64,000 nt of DNA from Escherichia coli (lineage in GTDB: Bacteria > Pseudomonadota > Gammaproteobacteria > Enterobacterales > Enterobacteriaceae), in NCBI RefSeq assembly GCF_024700885.2, contig NZ_CP117014.1. One strand, given 5' to 3'. The position numbers were made by a program, and so were the translations under genes. Within the stretch, counting starts at the first letter, position 1, and each line of letters opens with the position of its first letter. The notes beneath the pieces were generated by a model. That model worked only from the letters and a program-made list of their open reading frames with translations. It made no database searches and was not told the origin of the DNA. Positions 3,839 to 28,559 of this stretch are shown piece by piece.

Positions 3839-4834
3839 ATGAGTGCAATAATCACCCCATATGTCGTAAATGAAACTGGTGTGGCTGTCTTTCCTGTAGA
3901 TAAGCCCACCAGCAATTACATCGGCGCAGGACGCCGTTTTCTTATATCCCCATTGCCGCGTGAACAGGCTGAAAACACCCCTGATGGTGTCGTTGACCTG
4001 AATTATTCACTGGTTGCCAACCAGTCACTGGCACCCTTTTTTCAAAGTGAGCGCGTATTTAACGCGTTAGGTGGTGAGGATTCTCTCGTTCACTGGGTTA
4101 GCACCAACATTCACGATTGCCAGGTGCATGATAAGCGCGATTGCAGCCACCAGCTAACCACCCATTTCTATAACGGTTCTGCCGTTCGCCTGTGCTGGAA
4201 GCATGATGCGGAATACATGATGAAGGGATACGGCAAGCTGGAAGACCAACTGTCACTGAATCGCGCCAACTGGATTATGAACTGGGCTGCCAGCGAGTTA
4301 AAACTTCCGCCAGATCGCGATCTGAGCATGGTTGAACTCACCTTTTGGGCCATTCGCCGGAATCTTAAAGACGAACTGCCTGATGAAGCTGGTCGCATTG
4401 CATTTTGTCAGCCAAAAACTGAAATCCCTACCGGCACTCTGAAAGAGTCGGATATTACTTGGGAGCATAGTACCCGCGAGCTGGTGGATATTTCCGCAGA
4501 GCAGATCGTCAATCTGTCCGTCGATGAAGATTCTGGCCTCCTATATATGCGCCGTCCAAAAACCTTACTCGGAAAAAGCCCGGCTTATCTCCGGTTTGTG
4601 GTGTCTCGCCCGTGTGTAGGCTGCGGCGGCAAGGTTAATCACCCATTCATGTACCGCGCCCGCTCGTTAAACGAACACGACCGCTGGACTGTTCCTCTTT
4701 GCGATGACTGCGCCAGAAGCGCAGAAAACGATGTCCGGGCATGGGAAAAAGCACATGGCATACGCCTTTACGTAGCCGCTAACCAGCTTTTCGACTTCGC
4801 CATTGAGCGCGGAGTGATCACGTTCAATAACTGA
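3839..4834 (+). CDS. DUF968-like / HNH-like Cys-His protein
   Basis: 331 aa; C-terminal CVGCGG...HPFMYRARSLNEHDRWTVPLCDDCAR resembles the Ref-type Cys/His cluster. Confidence 0.5.
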   Translation: MSAIITPYVVNETGVAVFPVDKPTSNYIGAGRRFLISPLPREQAENTPDGVVDLNYSLVANQSLAPFFQSERVFNALGGEDSLVHWVSTNIHDCQVHDKRDCSHQLTTHFYNGSAVRLCWKHDAEYMMKGYGKLEDQLSLNRANWIMNWAASELKLPPDRDLSMVELTFWAIRRNLKDELPDEAGRIAFCQPKTEIPTGTLKESDITWEHSTRELVDISAEQIVNLSVDEDSGLLYMRRPKTLLGKSPAYLRFVVSRPCVGCGGKVNHPFMYRARSLNEHDRWTVPLCDDCARSAENDVRAWEKAHGIRLYVAANQLFDFAIERGVITFNN

Positions 4835-13419: not shown

Positions 13420-14514
13420 TCACTCAATGATTTTTTCTGCTGTCAGCCAGCTAATTTCTTGCCTGTCTTTCGGCGGTTTTAGCATGTGGGCGTATTCAGC
13501 GACATTCTCCCACGGAATTGTTTTTGCCCACTCAACGATAGCATTGTGATCTGCAGTGAAGAGTGGAATGGTGTGCGATTTCAACCATTCTAATGTCGTG
13601 ACGCCATGTTTTTTGGCGTGGTGCTGCGCATGATGCCGGGCTATCACTCGTAATGGTATTGTCCATTCACTACCATCAGGCATCGAAAAGCGCATTGTCT
13701 TCGGCATATCTGATTCAAGAACAGCCTCCCTAATACCAGGGAACTCACCAAGAATCATACGACGATAGTCATCACTATTTCGCCCGCCATACCTTTCGGC
13801 AAAATGATCAAGATATTCTTGGGTAATAAATGGTGAATCCTCCGCACTCAGCTTAATGGCTTTATATACACCACTCGGATTATCTTCAGCTAAAGCACGT
13901 CCATGATGTGAATCATAAAAAAAGCCTATTTCCTCTGGTGACGGAATTGAAGTGAGCAATATGCGTGAATCACCACTAGTCATGCTTGCCCACACAATGC
14001 TGTATGCCCGATCGCTGATATGTGCGGAATCCACAATAATGAATAAAAGATGGTCGGCGTAGTGACCTGCAATGCTATCTTCATAGTTAAGGCGGAAGTT
14101 ACAAAAGCACATTCCCCAAAATTCATTGAACATCAGACCGCTATCACCGACCTTAAAATACTCAATGATAAAAGGTTGTTTTTTCAGCAATGCCTCCCAA
14201 CATTGCCACACATATGCAACAATTCCTCTTTTGCAAACATTTGATTTTGGATAAACAATTACTGTCCGGGAATCAGGATACATAATCGTATAAAGGGTAC
14301 TAATAACAGCAAGCACTTGCGGTCGTCCGATCCCATACGGAGTGGTGACAGTAGCTTTTGCATTATTGGGCTGTATAGCTTCAACAATTTGTTGTTGCTG
14401 GTGGCTTAAATCAATATCAAACAATTCTTTTGCTGCCAGTACCCAATTGTCTTTATATTTCTCCACCAGCGACAGCCAGCGCGGATCTTTATAAATATTG
14501 CTCTTAGTCGCCAT
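13420..14514 (-). CDS. Terminase large-subunit (PacB) paralog with degenerate Walker A/B motifs
   Basis: Aligns with PacB (19603-21111): DPRW, SHQQQQI, FYDSHH, SPF, EYGGR shared; Walker A GHGTGKS replaced by PYGIGRP, Walker B ILDEAS by IVDSAH; divergent shorter C-terminus. Start set at MATKSNIYKD (ATG 14514). Confidence 0.6.
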   Translation of the reverse strand: MATKSNIYKDPRWLSLVEKYKDNWVLAAKELFDIDLSHQQQQIVEAIQPNNAKATVTTPYGIGRPQVLAVISTLYTIMYPDSRTVIVYPKSNVCKRGIVAYVWQCWEALLKKQPFIIEYFKVGDSGLMFNEFWGMCFCNFRLNYEDSIAGHYADHLLFIIVDSAHISDRAYSIVWASMTSGDSRILLTSIPSPEEIGFFYDSHHGRALAEDNPSGVYKAIKLSAEDSPFITQEYLDHFAERYGGRNSDDYRRMILGEFPGIREAVLESDMPKTMRFSMPDGSEWTIPLRVIARHHAQHHAKKHGVTTLEWLKSHTIPLFTADHNAIVEWAKTIPWENVAEYAHMLKPPKDRQEISWLTAEKIIE

Positions 14515-23940: not shown

Positions 23941-24392
23941 AACGTTTCCTTTTTTACACGCGCGACTATCCCCCGGAAGTACCGGTAGTGATGTCGTAAC
24001 TTCGTATTAATTAAGGGGTACAGCCTGAGCGGCTATATGATGAATTGAAAGGAGTTGTGGCGGTGGTGCCTCCACCTGCCAGGTTAGCCACTCCTGGCGA
24101 CGTCACTTATCAGAACGTAGTGAATGAAAATGGCTTCGTCACGAGCGCATAGCCGCAATTACCACAACGGAAACGGCGCTCACGCTAATTAAACGCCTTT
24201 TCCTGTTGTGCGCCGTGCTCTTCCGGCTGTCACACCGAATCGCCAGGATGGTGAATCCGCAGTCCGACGCTATGAACGGGGCTTGCACATTCCGGCTACC
24301 TGGTGTGCCCATGCAGTGTTAGTAAAAGGTACCTAACAGCTACACCAGACCGCTAACGACGCATGTGCCATACGCCGTGTTACAACCAAATG

Positions 24393-24468
24393 TGGTGGCC
24401 CCTACCGGACTTGAACCGGTGACCGTGCGATTATGAGTCGCCCGCTCTAACCACTGAGCTAAAGGGCC
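24393..24468 (-). tRNA. tRNA with CAT anticodon, most like tRNA-Ile2 (lysidine, reads AUA)
   Basis: GGCCCTTTAGCTCAGTGGTTAGAGCGGGCGACTCATAATCGCACGGTCACCGGTTCAAGTCCGGTAGGGGCCACCA; cloverleaf folds; closely resembles E. coli ileX as recalled. Confidence 0.75.
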
Positions 24469-24897
24469 AGATTACTGTTAATTACGCTTACGCTTTTTGC
24501 CAGAACCGCGTAAGGCTTTTGCCGCTTGCTCTACCCCGTATGCAACCACCAGCAGAAACAATAATGTCCACTCCGGGTTTTTATCGGCAAACGCCCAAAA
24601 ATCCATCACTTGCAGCCACCTTTTAAGACAAAACGCCATTGCTGTTAGGTTGCGGTGCCGGGCGCCTCCCGGTGACGTTAACCAGTTAACAATTAACGCC
24701 GGATCACTTATGGATTCTCGTTACGCCAGTAAAAAGACCACCTTTACTGTTTTAACTGTTCCGCGTGCGCTTAGCCGCATTCACCGCAATGGTAAGAGCA
24801 TTTGGCTGACTGGGCGGCGATGACGCCTGTACGCATTTGGTGATCCGGTTCTGCTTCCGGCATTCGCTTAATTAGCCAAATACCCTTAATGTTGCAC

Positions 24898-24984
24898 TGG
24901 CGGAGAGTAATGGAATCGAACCATCATCGCTTGCGCAATGGGACGGTTTTCAAGACCGCTTGAGCACCATGCTCCCTACTCTCC
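24898..24984 (-). tRNA. tRNA-Ser (anticodon TGA) with long variable arm
   Basis: GGAGAGT...GGTCTTGAAAACC...GGTTCGATTCC...CTCTCCGCCA; 87 nt. Confidence 0.7.
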
Positions 24985-25438
24985 CGTTATTGTGGCGACC
25001 GGTGCTGATCTCCGGCTTGCGGTTATTTCAGACTCTCACGGGCGTTTAATTGCCCCGCCGAACAGCTCTTTTCCGCAATAGCTGCAATGTCTTTCGCGCA
25101 TCAGCCTGCGCATTCACCACAATGTTGAGAACACTGGTTGTCACGCTGCAACGCAACATTTATTCGTAGATTGGGATATGACCCCGTTACGCCAGTGTTC
25201 TCAACGTTGTAGTGCCGGTTACGGTTCCGGCCAGACCTCTTCCTCAACGGGGTGTTCTCCATACGGACTACCGTTTATTGGTCGTTCCTGCGGTTTATGT
25301 TGTGAAGCCAGATGCTTATCTTCTGGTTGCTTCAAAGAGCTGCACTTCATCACAACGGTAAGAGCATTTATGGCTCGCATCGCGGGAAAAAGCCCACGGT
25401 AGAGAGTCGAACTCTACAAATGCTCTTACCTGTTGTGT

Positions 25439-25514
25439 TGGTGCCGGTTAACGGGATCGAACCGCTGACCATTCGCTTACAAAGCGACTGCTCTACCAAC
25501 TGAGCTAAACCGGC
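25439..25514 (-). tRNA. tRNA-Thr (anticodon TGT)
   Basis: GCCGGTTTAGCTCAGTTGGTAGAGCAGTCGCTTTGTAAGCGA...GGTTCGATCCC...AACCGGCACCA. Confidence 0.7.
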
Positions 25515-25518
25515 AATT

Positions 25519-25605
25519 TGGTGGGGAGTGATGGAGTCGAACCACCCGAGTCGCAATGACAGTAGATTTACAGTCTACCCCGCTACCCCTACGGACTAAC
25601 TCCCC
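25519..25605 (-). tRNA. tRNA-Tyr (anticodon GTA) with long variable arm
   Basis: GGGGAGTTAGTCC...AGACTGTAAATCT...GGTTCGACTCC...CTCCCCACCA. Confidence 0.7.
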
Positions 25606-25610
25606 TAAAT

Positions 25611-25687
25611 TGGCGATGGTGGGTGGATTCGAACCACCTACCGAAAGCTTAGAAGGCTGCTGTTCTATCCTACTGAGCTACACCATC
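25611..25687 (-). tRNA. tRNA-Arg (anticodon TCT, reads AGA)
   Basis: GATGGTGTAGCTCAGTAGGATAGAACAGCAGCCTTCTAAGCTTT...GGTTCGAATCC...CACCATCGCCA; anticodon loop CTTCTAA like argU; stem slightly degenerate. Confidence 0.6.
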
Positions 25688-26191
25688 ACTTGCCGGGTAC
25701 GTCTCCGGCGAGGGCTTCCACCTCCGTATGCTTTTCGGCGCACCGCGCCCTGGCTGCAATTCGGTAACAGGGGATGCACAACCCTGGCTTCCAGCGTGAT
25801 TAGCGCCTTCAGCATGACGGGATATACCCGTTACAAGAAGTTCTCCCAGGATGCCATTAAGCAATGGCTGTTACGCGGGAAGGACGCAACAGGTAAGGGC
25901 GCTGACCAGAAAGACCTGACCCTTCTCATTCATCTGGTTAATCACACCAGCGCCCTTGCCTGTTATGCCTCCCCGTTCCCTAATACACAGACGGGGACAC
26001 TCTGCGGTCGATTTTTTTGACGGGGGACGACTCATACCCCGTGGCGTCTGGCTTCTTAGGCCGCTACCATCATCAGATCATCGTTTGCATTTACTTTAAT
26101 GGTCAGTTTCTAAACCGCCGCAAAGTCGCTAACCATGACGAAAACCCTAAAAAAGCCCACCCGAAGATGGGCAAATACGCTACATCTCACA

Positions 26192-26270
26192 CAAGAAAGA
26201 AGCCGACTGCCTGAGCTGGATTCACTTTCAAATGCCCGCTGAAAGGGATCACAAGTCGGCTTCTTTCTTG
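26192..26270. ncRNA. Long perfect hairpin (17-bp stems, about 45-nt loop), candidate structured RNA
   Basis: CAAGAAAGAAGCCGACT ... AGTCGGCTTCTTTCTTG in a 1.2-kb ORF-poor region next to the tRNA array. Confidence 0.3.
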
Positions 26271-26756
26271 ATGCGGCACTCTCTCCGCCCGTCACCGCTC
26301 TGTCTCGGTTGTCGCGTTTGCCACGCCAGCCGTAACGAGGTTTAAAGTCTTTACACGTTTCCATCACTCGACTGCCGTCTGTGGCTGTTCGTTGCAGCGG
26401 GGGTGCCTCCCCCTGGGGATATCCCCGGCCTTACCCCATTCTTTCAAGACACAATGCAAGGCCACATCCGCATAGGTGCATTACCGCAACATTAAGGAGA
26501 CTCAGGGCAAAAGGTAACCGCCACAAAAATCCCTATGCCTCCTTAATGTTGAAGATGTGCATTGATGATTAGATGCAGCATGTACCGTTACTCTCTGCCG
26601 GACCATCATCAATGAACACCTTAAAAAGACCTTCCGTGGCTCAACATGTATTGTCGTTTACTCCGCAAAGTGCTCTCTCTGAAACCACTTTCCGCACTAA
26701 ACCTGCTGAACTTTGGCCTGCACGGTGCCAAAGCGTGCTCTTGCATTACTATACAT

Positions 26757-26920
26757 TTCTAACACTTTAATTTGTTAAATGCTGGTGGGCGAACAATAAC
26801 CAATAAGTGACTATCAAGCCCAGCAAGCGAAACGTGGGTACCGCCCACCAGCAAGGAAAATTCTATGTTAAGTTATCTTCACAATCAATACATTCGAATT
26901 GTGATTTTAGATTTCTAACA
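26757..26920. promoter_or_regulatory. Two operator-like motifs flanking an 11-bp perfect inverted repeat
   Basis: TTCTAACA at 26757-26764 and 26913-26920; GCTGGTGGGCG ... CGCCCACCAGC between them. Confidence 0.35.
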
Positions 26921-26922
26921 CA

Positions 26923-28131
26923 TTATTTCCCATAAAGATCTTCTACACCCCCATTCTTCTTATCCCATTCGTTCGCCCATACCCGGCAAGCGTCAATGAT
27001 TTCCTGACGACGATCTCCTTGCATGAACGGGATGCTTTCATGGAAACAGCTTGGAATGCAGGCCACACTGAATACAGTATCAAACTCCGTCTGCTTGATT
27101 GCCTCCAGCGTCTCCGGACGCATTTTTAATTCATCGATTGGCGCATCCTTAGAGTCCATAATCCGGCGATATAAGCGCGGAAAATCCGTCTCCAGATACG
27201 CCATAATTTTATCTGCGAGACATTCGTCTATGTCGGTATTCCAGTCCTTTTCGAAGCCCGGCAGGCGATAGTAAAGCGGCGTTCCCCATACCGATGGGAT
27301 CACATCCATCGTTAACAGGCGATTGGTTCTGATTTGTTGATGGTAATTAGCCGTCAGCAGTGCTTCGCCACGCTGCCCAGTTTCCGCAACCAGGCCGTGC
27401 GGATACTCATGGATGTAGGCAATGGCATCCCTTCCATCATACATAAGTGGAAATGTCTCTGGTCTTTGTCCCATGCCACAAGCACGGTTCAGATCGTGAC
27501 CAAGCTGTGAGCACTCTCGCTTTAATGTTTCGATAATGCTCTGCGCTGTAGCCAACTTTTTACGCAGTGTGACGCCTTCGCCTTGATAATCAATGCATTG
27601 CTGATTGAGCTTGGTTAAACGCTCTTTTAGTTCCCGGCGCTCTCTTTTCAGCGTGCGGTTATCCTTCTCCGCAACATCCAGCCGCTTTGTCAGGCTTGGC
27701 GGATAGTCTTTTTTGTAACGGTTCAAATCGGCTTCGGCAGATTTACGCAGTGTATTTGCCTGTTCAAGACGCGCTTCCAGATTGCCGATCTCATTACGCA
27801 TATTCGCGGCAAATTGATTAACTGCATCACCCAGGCTTTCAACTGTCGCTGATACGCCTGTGACTTGTGAAAAACGGATCAAGCCATCATTAACTGCTTG
27901 TTGGTATTCCTCAAACTGATCCACCAGCTTATTGTAATCAACTGCCCCATCATCAAGCAGCTTGTTGATTTCCGCCACCAGGTTATCTGTAGTGGCAATG
28001 ACACTCTCGTGCAGTCGCTTTGACAGGTCATCACCCGGATTCCGTTTCTGTATAAGAGCGATTTGTGTGCGCAGCGTTTCAATTGCTGTCGAGATAATTT
28101 CCAGATTAGAAGTATCAGTGTGTTGACTCAT
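26923..28131 (-). CDS. Hypothetical 402-aa protein: N-terminal coiled coil plus unrecognised C-terminal domain
   Basis: ORF with operator-like motif (28162-28169) in its promoter; no motif I can assign to a known family. Confidence 0.5.
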   Translation of the reverse strand: MSQHTDTSNLEIISTAIETLRTQIALIQKRNPGDDLSKRLHESVIATTDNLVAEINKLLDDGAVDYNKLVDQFEEYQQAVNDGLIRFSQVTGVSATVESLGDAVNQFAANMRNEIGNLEARLEQANTLRKSAEADLNRYKKDYPPSLTKRLDVAEKDNRTLKRERRELKERLTKLNQQCIDYQGEGVTLRKKLATAQSIIETLKRECSQLGHDLNRACGMGQRPETFPLMYDGRDAIAYIHEYPHGLVAETGQRGEALLTANYHQQIRTNRLLTMDVIPSVWGTPLYYRLPGFEKDWNTDIDECLADKIMAYLETDFPRLYRRIMDSKDAPIDELKMRPETLEAIKQTEFDTVFSVACIPSCFHESIPFMQGDRRQEIIDACRVWANEWDKKNGGVEDLYGK

Positions 28132-28212
28132 TGCTATTCCCGTTACTTTGTTAAATTATTTTTCTAACATATTTTATTAGTTTGATGACAGTATCGAAAG
28201 ATGCAATAAACA

Positions 28213-28238
28213 AAAAACCCGCTAATTGGCGGGTTTTT
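28213..28238. terminator. Rho-independent terminator separating the 104-aa gene from the 402-aa gene
   Basis: AAAAACCCGC-taattg-GCGGGTTTTT. Confidence 0.6.
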
Positions 28239-28244
28239 ATGCAA

Positions 28245-28559
28245 TTACTGTGTTGCAGCCTGATAAATAAGATACGCGATAAATACAGGTACGATGGCCC
28301 ATTGCAGCAATGAAAGTAGCCTCATTACTGTTATTGGGGTAACTCCATCCACGTATTGTTTCTCTGACATTTTCCCGAACCAACTAACCGACAACAGTGC
28401 CGAGTTTTCCCCCAATTCCAGCTCTCTGAGAGCTTCACGGATTAACGGCGCTGTCACAGCCTTAACCGGTGTGCTCAACGTGATACTCCGCGTCCTCCCC
28501 GCATCGTCAGCGAACGCCAGACTCACATAATATTTTTTGCTCAATGTACAAACTCCCAA
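28245..28559 (-). CDS. Small protein with C-terminal transmembrane helix
   Basis: C-terminal LLSLLQWAIVPVFIAYLIY; start uncertain, may be the shorter MSEKQYV form. Confidence 0.35.
   Translation of the reverse strand: MGVCTLSKKYYVSLAFADDAGRTRSITLSTPVKAVTAPLIREALRELELGENSALLSVSWFGKMSEKQYVDGVTPITVMRLLSLLQWAIVPVFIAYLIYQAATQ

Follow-up and report, generated by a model that had tools for sequence, protein, structure and literature searches.

A structured RNA with a tmRNA-like tag frame in the putative repressor-controlled leader of a tRNA operon in a D6-like phage-plasmid

The 1.2-kb gap between a pmgS-like gene and an array of five tRNAs was analysed in a 64,000-nucleotide (nt) stretch of Escherichia coli DNA (contig NZ_CP117014.1), hereafter the window, which represents a D6-like phage-plasmid of the P1 family. 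Comparison with P1 and with related plasmids identifies the gap as a non-coding control region plus a leader of ~1.17 kb belonging to a predicted minus-strand operon, tRNA(Arg, Tyr, Thr, Ser, Met)-tciA-tciB, and as the counterpart of the P1 Pban/Op72 region and ban-operon leader. The part of the leader nearest the tRNAs is a conserved structured RNA, here called the tag RNA, which carries a startless reading frame like that of transfer-messenger RNA (tmRNA, the ssrA product), pseudoknots, and a 5' segment, the head, that is antisense to host tmRNA. We somewhat favour the view that a C1-repressed promoter serves this leader of the phage tRNA operon, and that the tag RNA would pair with host tmRNA and supply a replacement tag template. 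Coordinates are collected in Table 1, and related sequences are referred to by L numbers.

The tag RNA

The tag RNA is ~89-97% identical between P1 and D6-like elements. It hardly varies among P1 and all D6-like plasmids, even where the lineages share only 72-85% identity in other parts. Whereas the tag of E. coli tmRNA is ANDENYALAA, the frame in the window specifies ANDDLMMVAA. Copies gathered by means of a conserved upstream anchor came from at least 120 viral contigs, and the 124 copies contained 23 distinct tag sequences, each of exactly 10 sense codons and a stop, with no start codon. Among these were ANDDLMMVAA (window, D6 and P1), ANDDVVLMAA, ANEEMYLAVA, ANDEQFLAVA, ANDNTFLAVA, ANEERFLMAA, ANDSEVLMAA and ANSDQYLAVA. 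Several of the peptides occurred in two to five synonymous nucleotide versions, while the other two frames were full of stops; a startless frame of the tmRNA type, with a hydrophobic ...AA-type degron and a conserved resume context before it, was present. An alternative frame, ATG CAA ACG ATG ATC TGA, was rejected, since its length varies and its ATG is gone in L091.

Since a mixed P1/lambdoid RNAalifold alignment gave poor structure from misalignment, a lambdoid-only alignment and a covariance model were used. In 22 lambdoid-type sequences the helix-5-like hairpin, the next hairpin, the loop pseudoknot and stem S1 were paired in 95% of cells, with compensatory changes at 10 of the 22 pairs, compared with 31-42% pairing and 0-1 compensatory pairs in slid controls. 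The stop codon was found in the loop of the helix-5-like hairpin, with the pseudoknots following it, as in tmRNA. The loop and tetramer of the first pseudoknot change together by lineage (CCGA/UCGG, CCAG/CUGG and CCAA/UUGG, with GUCG/CGAC in the window), and the second stem of the H-type pseudoknot is swapped wholesale (GCCC/GGGC, GGCCCUGA/UCAGGGC and GGCGGGAG/CUCCCGCC, with UCCCCG/CGGGGA in the window).

The head comprises the ~55 nt that precede the frame. When heads were aligned to E. coli ssrA in reverse complement, those of six of the seven lineages matched nt 68-108 and scored 29-42; shuffled sequences scored 15 +/- 2.3 (0-1 of 500 shuffles), and on the sense strand the heads did not rise above background. 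For the head in the window the score was 33 against 15.0 +/- 2.3 in 500 shuffles (0/500), and 14 on the sense strand. RNAduplex gave a z of ~-3.2 for head plus tmRNA; only this shuffle comparison was used, as the absolute energies look inflated. The complementary segment of ssrA spans the 3' strand of pseudoknot 1, the linker, the resume codon and codons 1-5, and candidate pairing segments of head and tmRNA are GUUUUCGUC/GACGAAAAC. Lambdoid and P1-type heads keep UAGUUUUCGUC, GCGAC and UUUGCGG, and Felix O1-type heads keep (UA)GUUUUCGU and GCGUCUAUUUU. The parts of the antisense sequence that are retained differ between these groups, which speaks for selection for pairing with tmRNA. Codons 3-5 of the phage frame, inspected in the alignment, differ from those of the host, so the head cannot pair with its own frame. 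Pairing of the head with the phage's own resume region was also considered and is unlikely, given these non-complementary codons and the fact that L091 breaks GCAAA/UUUGC.

A covariance-model search, proposed as a check in an earlier note made on this DNA from its sequence, returned no Rfam family at threshold (STnc240 25 bits, MicA 22, tmRNA models 12-24 and STnc100 39), and weak tmRNA-model matches lay on the block shared with P1. Such matches recurred at one block common to the window, P1 and a lambdoid prophage, with UAAAU GCA AAC GAU ... GUA GCG GCC UAA as the aligned part, and the 23.8 bits of tmRNA_permuted lie below its gathering score of 47. A covariance model built from lambdoid-type copies only gave a single match in the window, at 25973-26146 on the minus strand (99.2 bits, E = 7e-24), and also matched P1, D6, Vi01, Mushroom, phiEa104 and Cyrano, with no match to E. 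coli ssrA.

A blastn search with a lambdoid-type copy reached 771 phage records (Salmonella 272, Escherichia 227, Klebsiella 112 and Erwinia 51), almost all of which have no annotated feature beneath the match. The carriers include lambdoid phages, Vi01-like phages, Felix O1-like phages (inside the tRNA array), 47-kb siphoviruses, N4-like phages and P1, and the usual location of the tag RNA is within a tRNA array or next to one. E. coli genomes contain its first 110 nt at ~140 chromosomal places; the two of these copies that were examined are in lambdoid prophages, between the Q antiterminator and holin genes and downstream of PR' and tR'. Individual promoters are present at a number of copies (L023, L031, L054, Mushroom and Vi01), and L054 has its own terminator; no separate promoter was found for the tag RNA in the window, where the only promoter-like site of 24000-28500 is the one upstream of the whole leader. 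This RNA was not described in the full texts searched, and it seems to be an undescribed variant of tmRNA-related RNAs, although a prior description in subscription journals, which lay outside the search, is possible.

In Salmonella phage Mushroom (L141, ~866-947) an unannotated tRNA-like element directly follows the tag RNA, with C1-G72, G3-U70, A73, CCA and a canonical T-arm, and with no D-arm; G3-U70 is an alanine identity mark. Candidate tRNA-like domains were sought in a pairing of the 3' CCACCACA with an upstream GGTGGTG, in the T-arm cassette of L018 and in this Mushroom element, and nothing consistent was obtained.

Control region and leader of the tRNA operon

Positions 25609-27000 of the window are 97.7% identical to Escherichia phage D6, and 26170-26925 show 100% identity to plasmid pB2C_96; PLSDB holds 119 D6-like plasmids with the latter stretch. 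All genes near the gap are on the minus strand, in the order pmgS-like gene, gap and the five tRNAs found by ARAGORN (Arg-tct, Tyr, Thr, Ser and Met-cat), so on the transcribed strand the gap is downstream of pmgS and upstream of the tRNAs. The transcribed strand is the minus strand, a correction to the earlier note. In P1, the annotation calls the counterpart of 25609-26175 (89.6% identical) the ban-operon leader, and the order there is the sigma-70 promoter P1ban, the bivalent C1 operator Op72ab, a 'dicF-like region', tRNA-Asn, tRNA-Thr, tciABC, tRNA-Ile and ban. Homology to P1 stops at 26175, in agreement with the rearrangement junction noticed before, and the upstream neighbour is dmt in P1 and pmgS here.

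Within 24000-28500 the sole promoter-like site detected lies between two TGTTAGAAA sites, O1 and O2. The two motifs earlier reported to flank the inverted repeat were confirmed: TTCTAACA occurs at 26757 and 26913, within a 21-nt direct repeat that constitutes these sites. Relatives with as little as ~72% identity still have O1, O2 and the two promoter hexamers. O1 is kept in all 12 relatives, and in L009-L011 it is a bivalent inverted pair, as is Op72ab in P1, with the second half-site of the upstream site abutting the -35 hexamer.

The TTCTAACA core occurs 11 times in the window, compared with 1.98 expected (Poisson P = 7e-6), and all 11 copies fall within the 13% of the window outside open reading frames (ORFs) of at least 90 aa. 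In D6 there are 12 copies, and those of D6 and the window are all intergenic or at gene starts. The D6 copies include ones 28 nt before c1, 14 nt before hrdC-dmt and 71 nt before ref, with others before icd-ant and pmgS, and in the window the motif also precedes repL; the operons that bear it are those controlled by C1 in P1. The extended consensus is asymmetric, ~AAATTAnTTTTCTAACAyA or AAATTAnTTTTCTAACA, and has only the AT-rich half in common with the P1 operator ATTGCTCTAATAAATTT (from the annotated Op72), with no match to the P1 consensus. Such a difference fits a different immunity specificity. From these observations we infer that the motif copies are D6-type C1 operators and that the operon is repressor-controlled. 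The earlier suggestion of a repressor-controlled leader for the tRNA operon fits both the homology to the P1 ban leader and the presence of the motif at the positions of P1 C1 operators. The control region is a known kind of system, ordinary but useful: D6-type phage-plasmids, common in E. coli and Salmonella, gain a candidate operator sequence and a map of putative repressor-controlled operons.

At the predicted 5' end of the transcript lies the perfect inverted repeat TGCTGGTGGGCG (26780-26791 / 26842-26853), which had been recorded as 11 bp and is 12 bp long, and whose arms had not been recognized as the Chi octamer GCTGGTGG. Of 12 aligned sequences, 11 retain the two octamers unaltered, the exception being L007 with a single change in the copy on the minus strand; the intervening 50 nt diverge among relatives. 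The extension of the stem past Chi covaries in L009-L011 and breaks in L005-L007. The octamer, which is reportedly over-represented in P1, occurs 36 times in the window (10 on the plus and 26 on the minus strand) against ~1.7 expected, a ~20-fold excess, and close opposite-strand pairs are found at 14397/14463, 26781/26845 and 35049/35083.

The D6-specific leader (26190-26750) was folded with RNAalifold on 12 sequences from plasmids 72-100% identical. It forms a chain of hairpins in which 12 predicted pairs are changed on both sides. The pairs of H2 survive one-sided G-U changes that on the opposite strand would give A-C mismatches, and many of the G-U pairs are possible only on the minus strand, which speaks for a minus-strand RNA. 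Two structures pointed out previously were borne out, namely the hairpin with a 17-bp stem (H4), a perfect inverted repeat at 26192-26208 / 26254-26270, and the GC-rich palindromes, which are GGGGATATCCCC and GGGGG-N5-CCCCC at ~26399-26427; the further inverted repeats I1, I2 and I4 were added to them. In L004 (NZ_CP058619, 1818-1882) the 65-nt H3 is exactly inverted in a plasmid otherwise 95% identical, a clean stem-loop flip. Positions 26280-26389 are 83% identical to an intergenic sequence (2001-2113) of L014, the Pantoea phage-plasmid NZ_CP034366, which is otherwise unrelated. The leader hairpins are probably processing or stabilizing elements of a long pre-tRNA leader, this being the most economical reading.

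Coding capacity in the gap was dismissed in agreement with the earlier note, which had seen no convincing ORF. None exceeds 85 aa, and the relatives have non-triplet indels and an in-frame stop in the longest. In this minus-strand ORF (85 aa, 26110-26367) codon 4 is TGA in L010/L011 and the frame is shifted in L008, and the others are broken by A7/A6 and 2-nt indels among the 12 related sequences.

Between H4 and terminator T1, P1 and L007 and L009-L013 carry a module of ~105 nt with visible covariation, the 'dicF-like region' of P1, which is deleted in the window, D6 and several other plasmids. The module is 78-96% identical to a structured ~100 nt just upstream of dicF in prophage Qin (L009 1380-1500, P1 (L002) 4570-4680 and Qin (L017) ~2260-2360), and no Rfam family corresponds to it. 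Rfam DicF (RF00039) had no match at E <= 1 in the window or P1. DicF homology in the window was rejected, since in blastn the ydfC-dicB spacer matched only the upstream module in relatives, with nothing significant in the window. In the invariant GC-rich block, CACCCCCGCTGCAACG (26386-26401) matches CAACCCCGCTGCAACG of Qin (L017, ~2352-2367) at 15/16 positions (E = 0.15), where CAACCCCGCTGCAACG follows the pre-dicF module and ends ~16 nt upstream of dicF; the match may be a trace of shared ancestry, or chance. T1 is conserved in all relatives and P1.

Table 1. Features of the gap and its borders in the window, in the order of predicted transcription
Feature	Position	Strand	Remarks
pmgS-like gene, 402 aa	26923-28131	-	
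O1, upstream operator-like copy	26908-26928	.	ATTTCTAACAC on the plus strand; directly after the pmgS-like stop codon; direct repeat D1
Sigma-70-like promoter (predicted)	26860-26888	-	TTGATT-17-TAGAAT; predicted start near 26853
Inverted Chi pair, 12-bp stem of hairpin H1	26780-26853	.	GCTGGTGG at 26781-26788 (+) and 26845-26852 (-); predicted transcript 5' end
O2, downstream operator-like copy	26752-26772	.	~95 nt past the predicted transcription start
Hairpin H2	26549-26625	-	inverted repeat I2
Hairpin H3	26487-26551	-	inverted repeat I1; compensatory AU/GC and GC/AU changes
Three GC-rich hairpins, nearly invariant block	26395-26486	-	conserved even in L012/L013 (otherwise ~72% identical)
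Separable leader module	26275-26390	-	missing from L012/L013
Hairpin H4, 17-bp perfect stem	26192-26270	-	six pairs changed on both sides, one with three pair types
Deletion junction of the ~105-nt 'pre-dicF-like' module	26176-26191	-	module present in P1 and L007/L009-L013
Intrinsic terminator T1	26149-26172	-	7-bp stem GCCCATC-TTCG-GGTGGGC, UUCG loop, U6
Tag RNA, conserved and structured, ~460 nt	25688-26148	-	P1-shared; ends at the first tRNA
Head of the tag RNA	26089-26145	-	complementary to E. coli tmRNA nt 68-104
Startless frame, ANDDLMMVAA*	26056-26088	-	GCA AAC GAT GAT CTG ATG ATG GTA GCG GCC TAA; preceded by UAAAU
Hairpin with stop codon in loop	26042-26069	-	like tmRNA helix 5
Hairpin ACGGGG...CCCCGT	26006-26042	-	loop GUCG pairs with downstream CGAC, first pseudoknot
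Second pseudoknot, H-type	25970-26005	-	GCAGA/UCUGU and UCCCCG/CGGGGA
Long hairpin 'cassette', 17-nt arms	25888-25964	-	I4; homologous to the CACAACAGGTAAGAGCATT arms of lambdoid copies
Terminal hairpin GCCGG-N8-CCGGC	25692-25709	-	just before the tRNA
tRNA-Arg(tct)	25611-25687	-	ARAGORN; first tRNA of the array fed by the leader

Several observations were made in the tRNA array itself. The first tRNA is Arg(tct) in the window and several relatives and Asn(gtt) in D6, P1 and others; the two variants have nearly the same acceptor and T arms, the exchange being mainly in the anticodon stem-loop. The window has an extra tRNA-Tyr between tRNA-Arg and tRNA-Thr. In the D6 RefSeq record (L001/L015, 7145-7850) the tRNAs are annotated '+', and they match in position those that ARAGORN placed on the minus strand of the window. 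An annotation error is possible but unproven, as ARAGORN was run on the window, not on D6; the strand column was wrong for another record. Between tRNA-Met and tRNA-Ser (24651-24788, minus strand) there is a sub-threshold match to Rfam STnc100, at 39 bits against a gathering score of 47, which is also seen at the equivalent position of P1. The arms CACAACAGGTAAGAGCATT / AATGCTCTTACCGTTGTG of a long hairpin at ~25345-25432 on the minus strand enclose another hairpin that resembles a T-arm. In lambdoid late leaders (L018/L019/L023) these arms are found again, there surrounding variable inserts of which some resemble tRNA fragments; the arms appear to mark cassette slots.

Proposed mechanism and alternatives

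In the favoured reading, C1 of the D6 type would bind O1 and O2, which bracket the promoter, and silence the operon in the lysogen, possibly through a loop formed by the 156 bp that separate the two sites. Derepression would start leftward transcription of the 5' hairpin with Chi arms, the hairpin chain, T1, the 460-nt tag RNA and the tRNAs, and the opposed Chi arms might also act on the DNA against RecBCD. T1 would be partly read through, and the tag RNA would be released by processing together with the tRNAs. The head would then anneal to host tmRNA, mask the host tag template and form an intermolecular helix that replaces pseudoknot 1. This would place the phage resume codon (UAAAU|GCA, with UA at -5/-4) beside the host tRNA-like domain, where ribosomes resume. 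The hybrid would act like a two-piece tmRNA, so that rescued proteins receive a phage-encoded tag. This hybrid mechanism taken by itself is tentative and less likely than not, and so is the wider proposal that at least five unrelated types of enterobacterial phage (P1/D6, lambdoid, Felix O1-like, Vi01-like and N4-like) carry such a parasitic coding piece for a trans-assembled host-phage hybrid two-piece tmRNA, which changes the tag from ANDENYALAA to others such as ANDDLMMVAA or ANDxxFLAVA.

A number of points weigh against the favoured reading. O1 is upstream of the -35 hexamer and O2 is at ~+95, so that neither overlaps the predicted promoter, unlike P1 Op72; operators that flank a promoter make looping a possibility, and C1 of P1 does loop DNA. 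In P1-type genomes the tag RNA lies directly behind a strong terminator, and the promoter, the operator function, read-through of T1 and the ends of the RNA are themselves predictions. For Chi pairs within 100 bp ~1.9 are expected and 3 were seen; since close pairs are not rare in a Chi-rich genome, the hairpin and Chi roles are inseparable. A scan by ARAGORN of the window and 29 related loci, 24 of which contain the tag RNA, turned up no tmRNA, and the Rfam tmRNA models align the coding part only, below threshold, with no tRNA-like domain. The Cyrano head had no significant complementarity to ssrA, in a comparison for which E. coli ssrA was the only host tmRNA used. We know of no precedent for a coding piece that borrows a host tRNA-like domain, and pairing that disrupts pseudoknot 1 could simply inactivate tmRNA.

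An alternative that we judge unlikely, though it is the one to be taken most seriously, is that the tag RNA does no more than inhibit host tmRNA as an antisense RNA. Its head would block the resume region and shut down or titrate trans-translation during infection, and the frame and pseudoknots would be structural, or a relic of an ssrA fragment, and never translated. The statistically strong complementarity of the head and the failure to find a tRNA-like domain would both be accommodated, and a molecule with only the tRNA-like domain is known to inhibit tmRNA, one being carried by DS6A (PMC4131195). What this leaves hard to explain is selection at the level of the peptide: all 23 variants have 10 sense codons and a stop, synonymous third positions, an ...AA or ...VA end and UA at -5/-4, and in L091 GCA AAC has become GCT AAT, a change silent in the tag frame. 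Such selection is difficult to account for if the frame is not translated, although the hairpin also constrains part of it. Alternatively, the tag RNA could be a complete phage tmRNA whose tRNA-like domain was not recognized, either because it is non-canonical in cis (for example, a terminal hairpin plus a CCACCA-like end, or an adjacent tRNA-like element) or because a second piece lies elsewhere in the phage genome. This is improbable. Lambdoid copies do have ...CCGGCCACCACA at their end, or else a canonical T-arm and CTCCACA (L031), the Mushroom element with its G3-U70, A73 and CCA comes right after the RNA, and the RNA is mostly in or beside tRNA arrays; however, no acceptor pairing is consistent across lineages, L054 ends in a plain terminator, and which tRNA follows, if any, depends on the phage (Ser, Asn, Arg, Leu or none). 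Nothing beyond the coding part is recognized by ARAGORN or the Rfam tmRNA models, and the antisense head would be left unexplained.

It is also conceivable, if quite improbable, that the gap is mostly recombination debris between mosaic modules, providing a promoter for the tRNAs and a functionless leader RNA, with its conservation due to the recent spread of one sequence. Modules do come and go (L012/L013 do not have 26275-26390, the window has no pre-dicF module and L004 carries H3 in inverted form), and P1 manages with a much shorter promoter-proximal leader. Compensatory changes in H3, H4 and the tag-RNA helices nevertheless argue against it, as do the positional pattern of the operator motif and the conservation of the tag RNA across phage families that otherwise share almost nothing. 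Least credible is a processed antisense RNA of the immunity system, like c4 of P1, which the earlier note had put forward on finding a possible regulatory RNA locus. The region is indeed non-coding and hairpin-rich in a P1-family genome, and H4 plus T1 could give an RNA of ~125 nt. A conserved structured RNA is in fact present at 25688-26148, but its resemblance is to the tag-coding portion of tmRNA and not to an antisense RNA of immunity; there was no match to Rfam C4 or to any other small RNA at threshold, no target gene follows, only tRNAs, no small RNA of 26150-26900 is predicted to pair with an ant/icd-type mRNA, and D6 homologues of the icd-ant immunity-I genes, with their own operator, are located elsewhere (window ~38-39 kb; D6 20.7-21.3 kb).

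Trans-translation has long been known to affect the growth of some phages, for reasons that are unclear. The tag RNA constitutes a large unannotated family in model phages (P1, Felix O1 and Vi01) and in therapeutic candidates, and it ties infection to trans-translation. If the RNA does redirect or block tagging by tmRNA, this would be a new viral takeover of host protein quality control, and would explain why the tag RNA travels with phage tRNA arrays.

Comparison with known systems

The closest counterpart is the control region and leader of the P1 ban operon, with which the gap shares its genomic role, direct homology over 25609-26175 (89.6%), an asymmetric operator of ~17 nt with a specificity half and an AT-rich half that is bivalent in some relatives, and a long non-coding leader into tRNAs followed by tciA/tciB. 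It differs in that the operator is TGTTAGAAAAnTAATTT here and ATTGCTCTAATAAATTT in P1, and that it flanks the predicted promoter instead of overlapping it. The upstream gene is pmgS-like, not dmt, ~680 nt of D6-specific leader are added, the dicF-like module has been lost, and D6 has no ban gene downstream. The Chi hotspots of P1-family genomes show the same octamer excess; what sets the gap apart is a conserved, perfect 12-bp inverted repeat that is made up of two opposed copies and lies where a transcript is predicted to begin. At the Qin dicF locus the same ~100-nt module is found as in L009, L012 and P1, where a terminator follows in the place where DicF would sit; it is the precursor segment and not mature DicF that is similar, and the window keeps only the terminator of the module.

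With tmRNA, including the two-piece alpha-proteobacterial form, the tag RNA has in common a startless frame beginning GCA AAC GA, of 10 codons that finish with AA or VA and are followed by a stop, a UA at -5/-4 upstream of the resume codon, a stop codon in a hairpin loop with pseudoknots after it, and a coding stretch that tmRNA_permuted aligns. It differs in being without a tRNA-like domain, an equivalent of pseudoknot 1 or a 3' CCA, the antisense head replacing pseudoknot 1, and in being phage-encoded, often in a tRNA operon, with a family model that does not match E. coli ssrA. An exhaustive survey of ssrA in 2014 found phage tmRNAs only in mycobacteriophages and Bacillus phage G, and none in enterobacterial phages (PMC4131195). 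Complete tmRNAs were reported from Bxz1-like mycobacteriophages and phage G, and a 'tmRNA' with only the tRNA-like domain from mycobacteriophage DS6A (PMC4131195). These RNAs resemble the tag RNA in being phage-borne and derived from, or aimed at, trans-translation, but they carry the tRNA-like half or the whole molecule, whereas the tag RNA consists of the coding half and an antisense head only.

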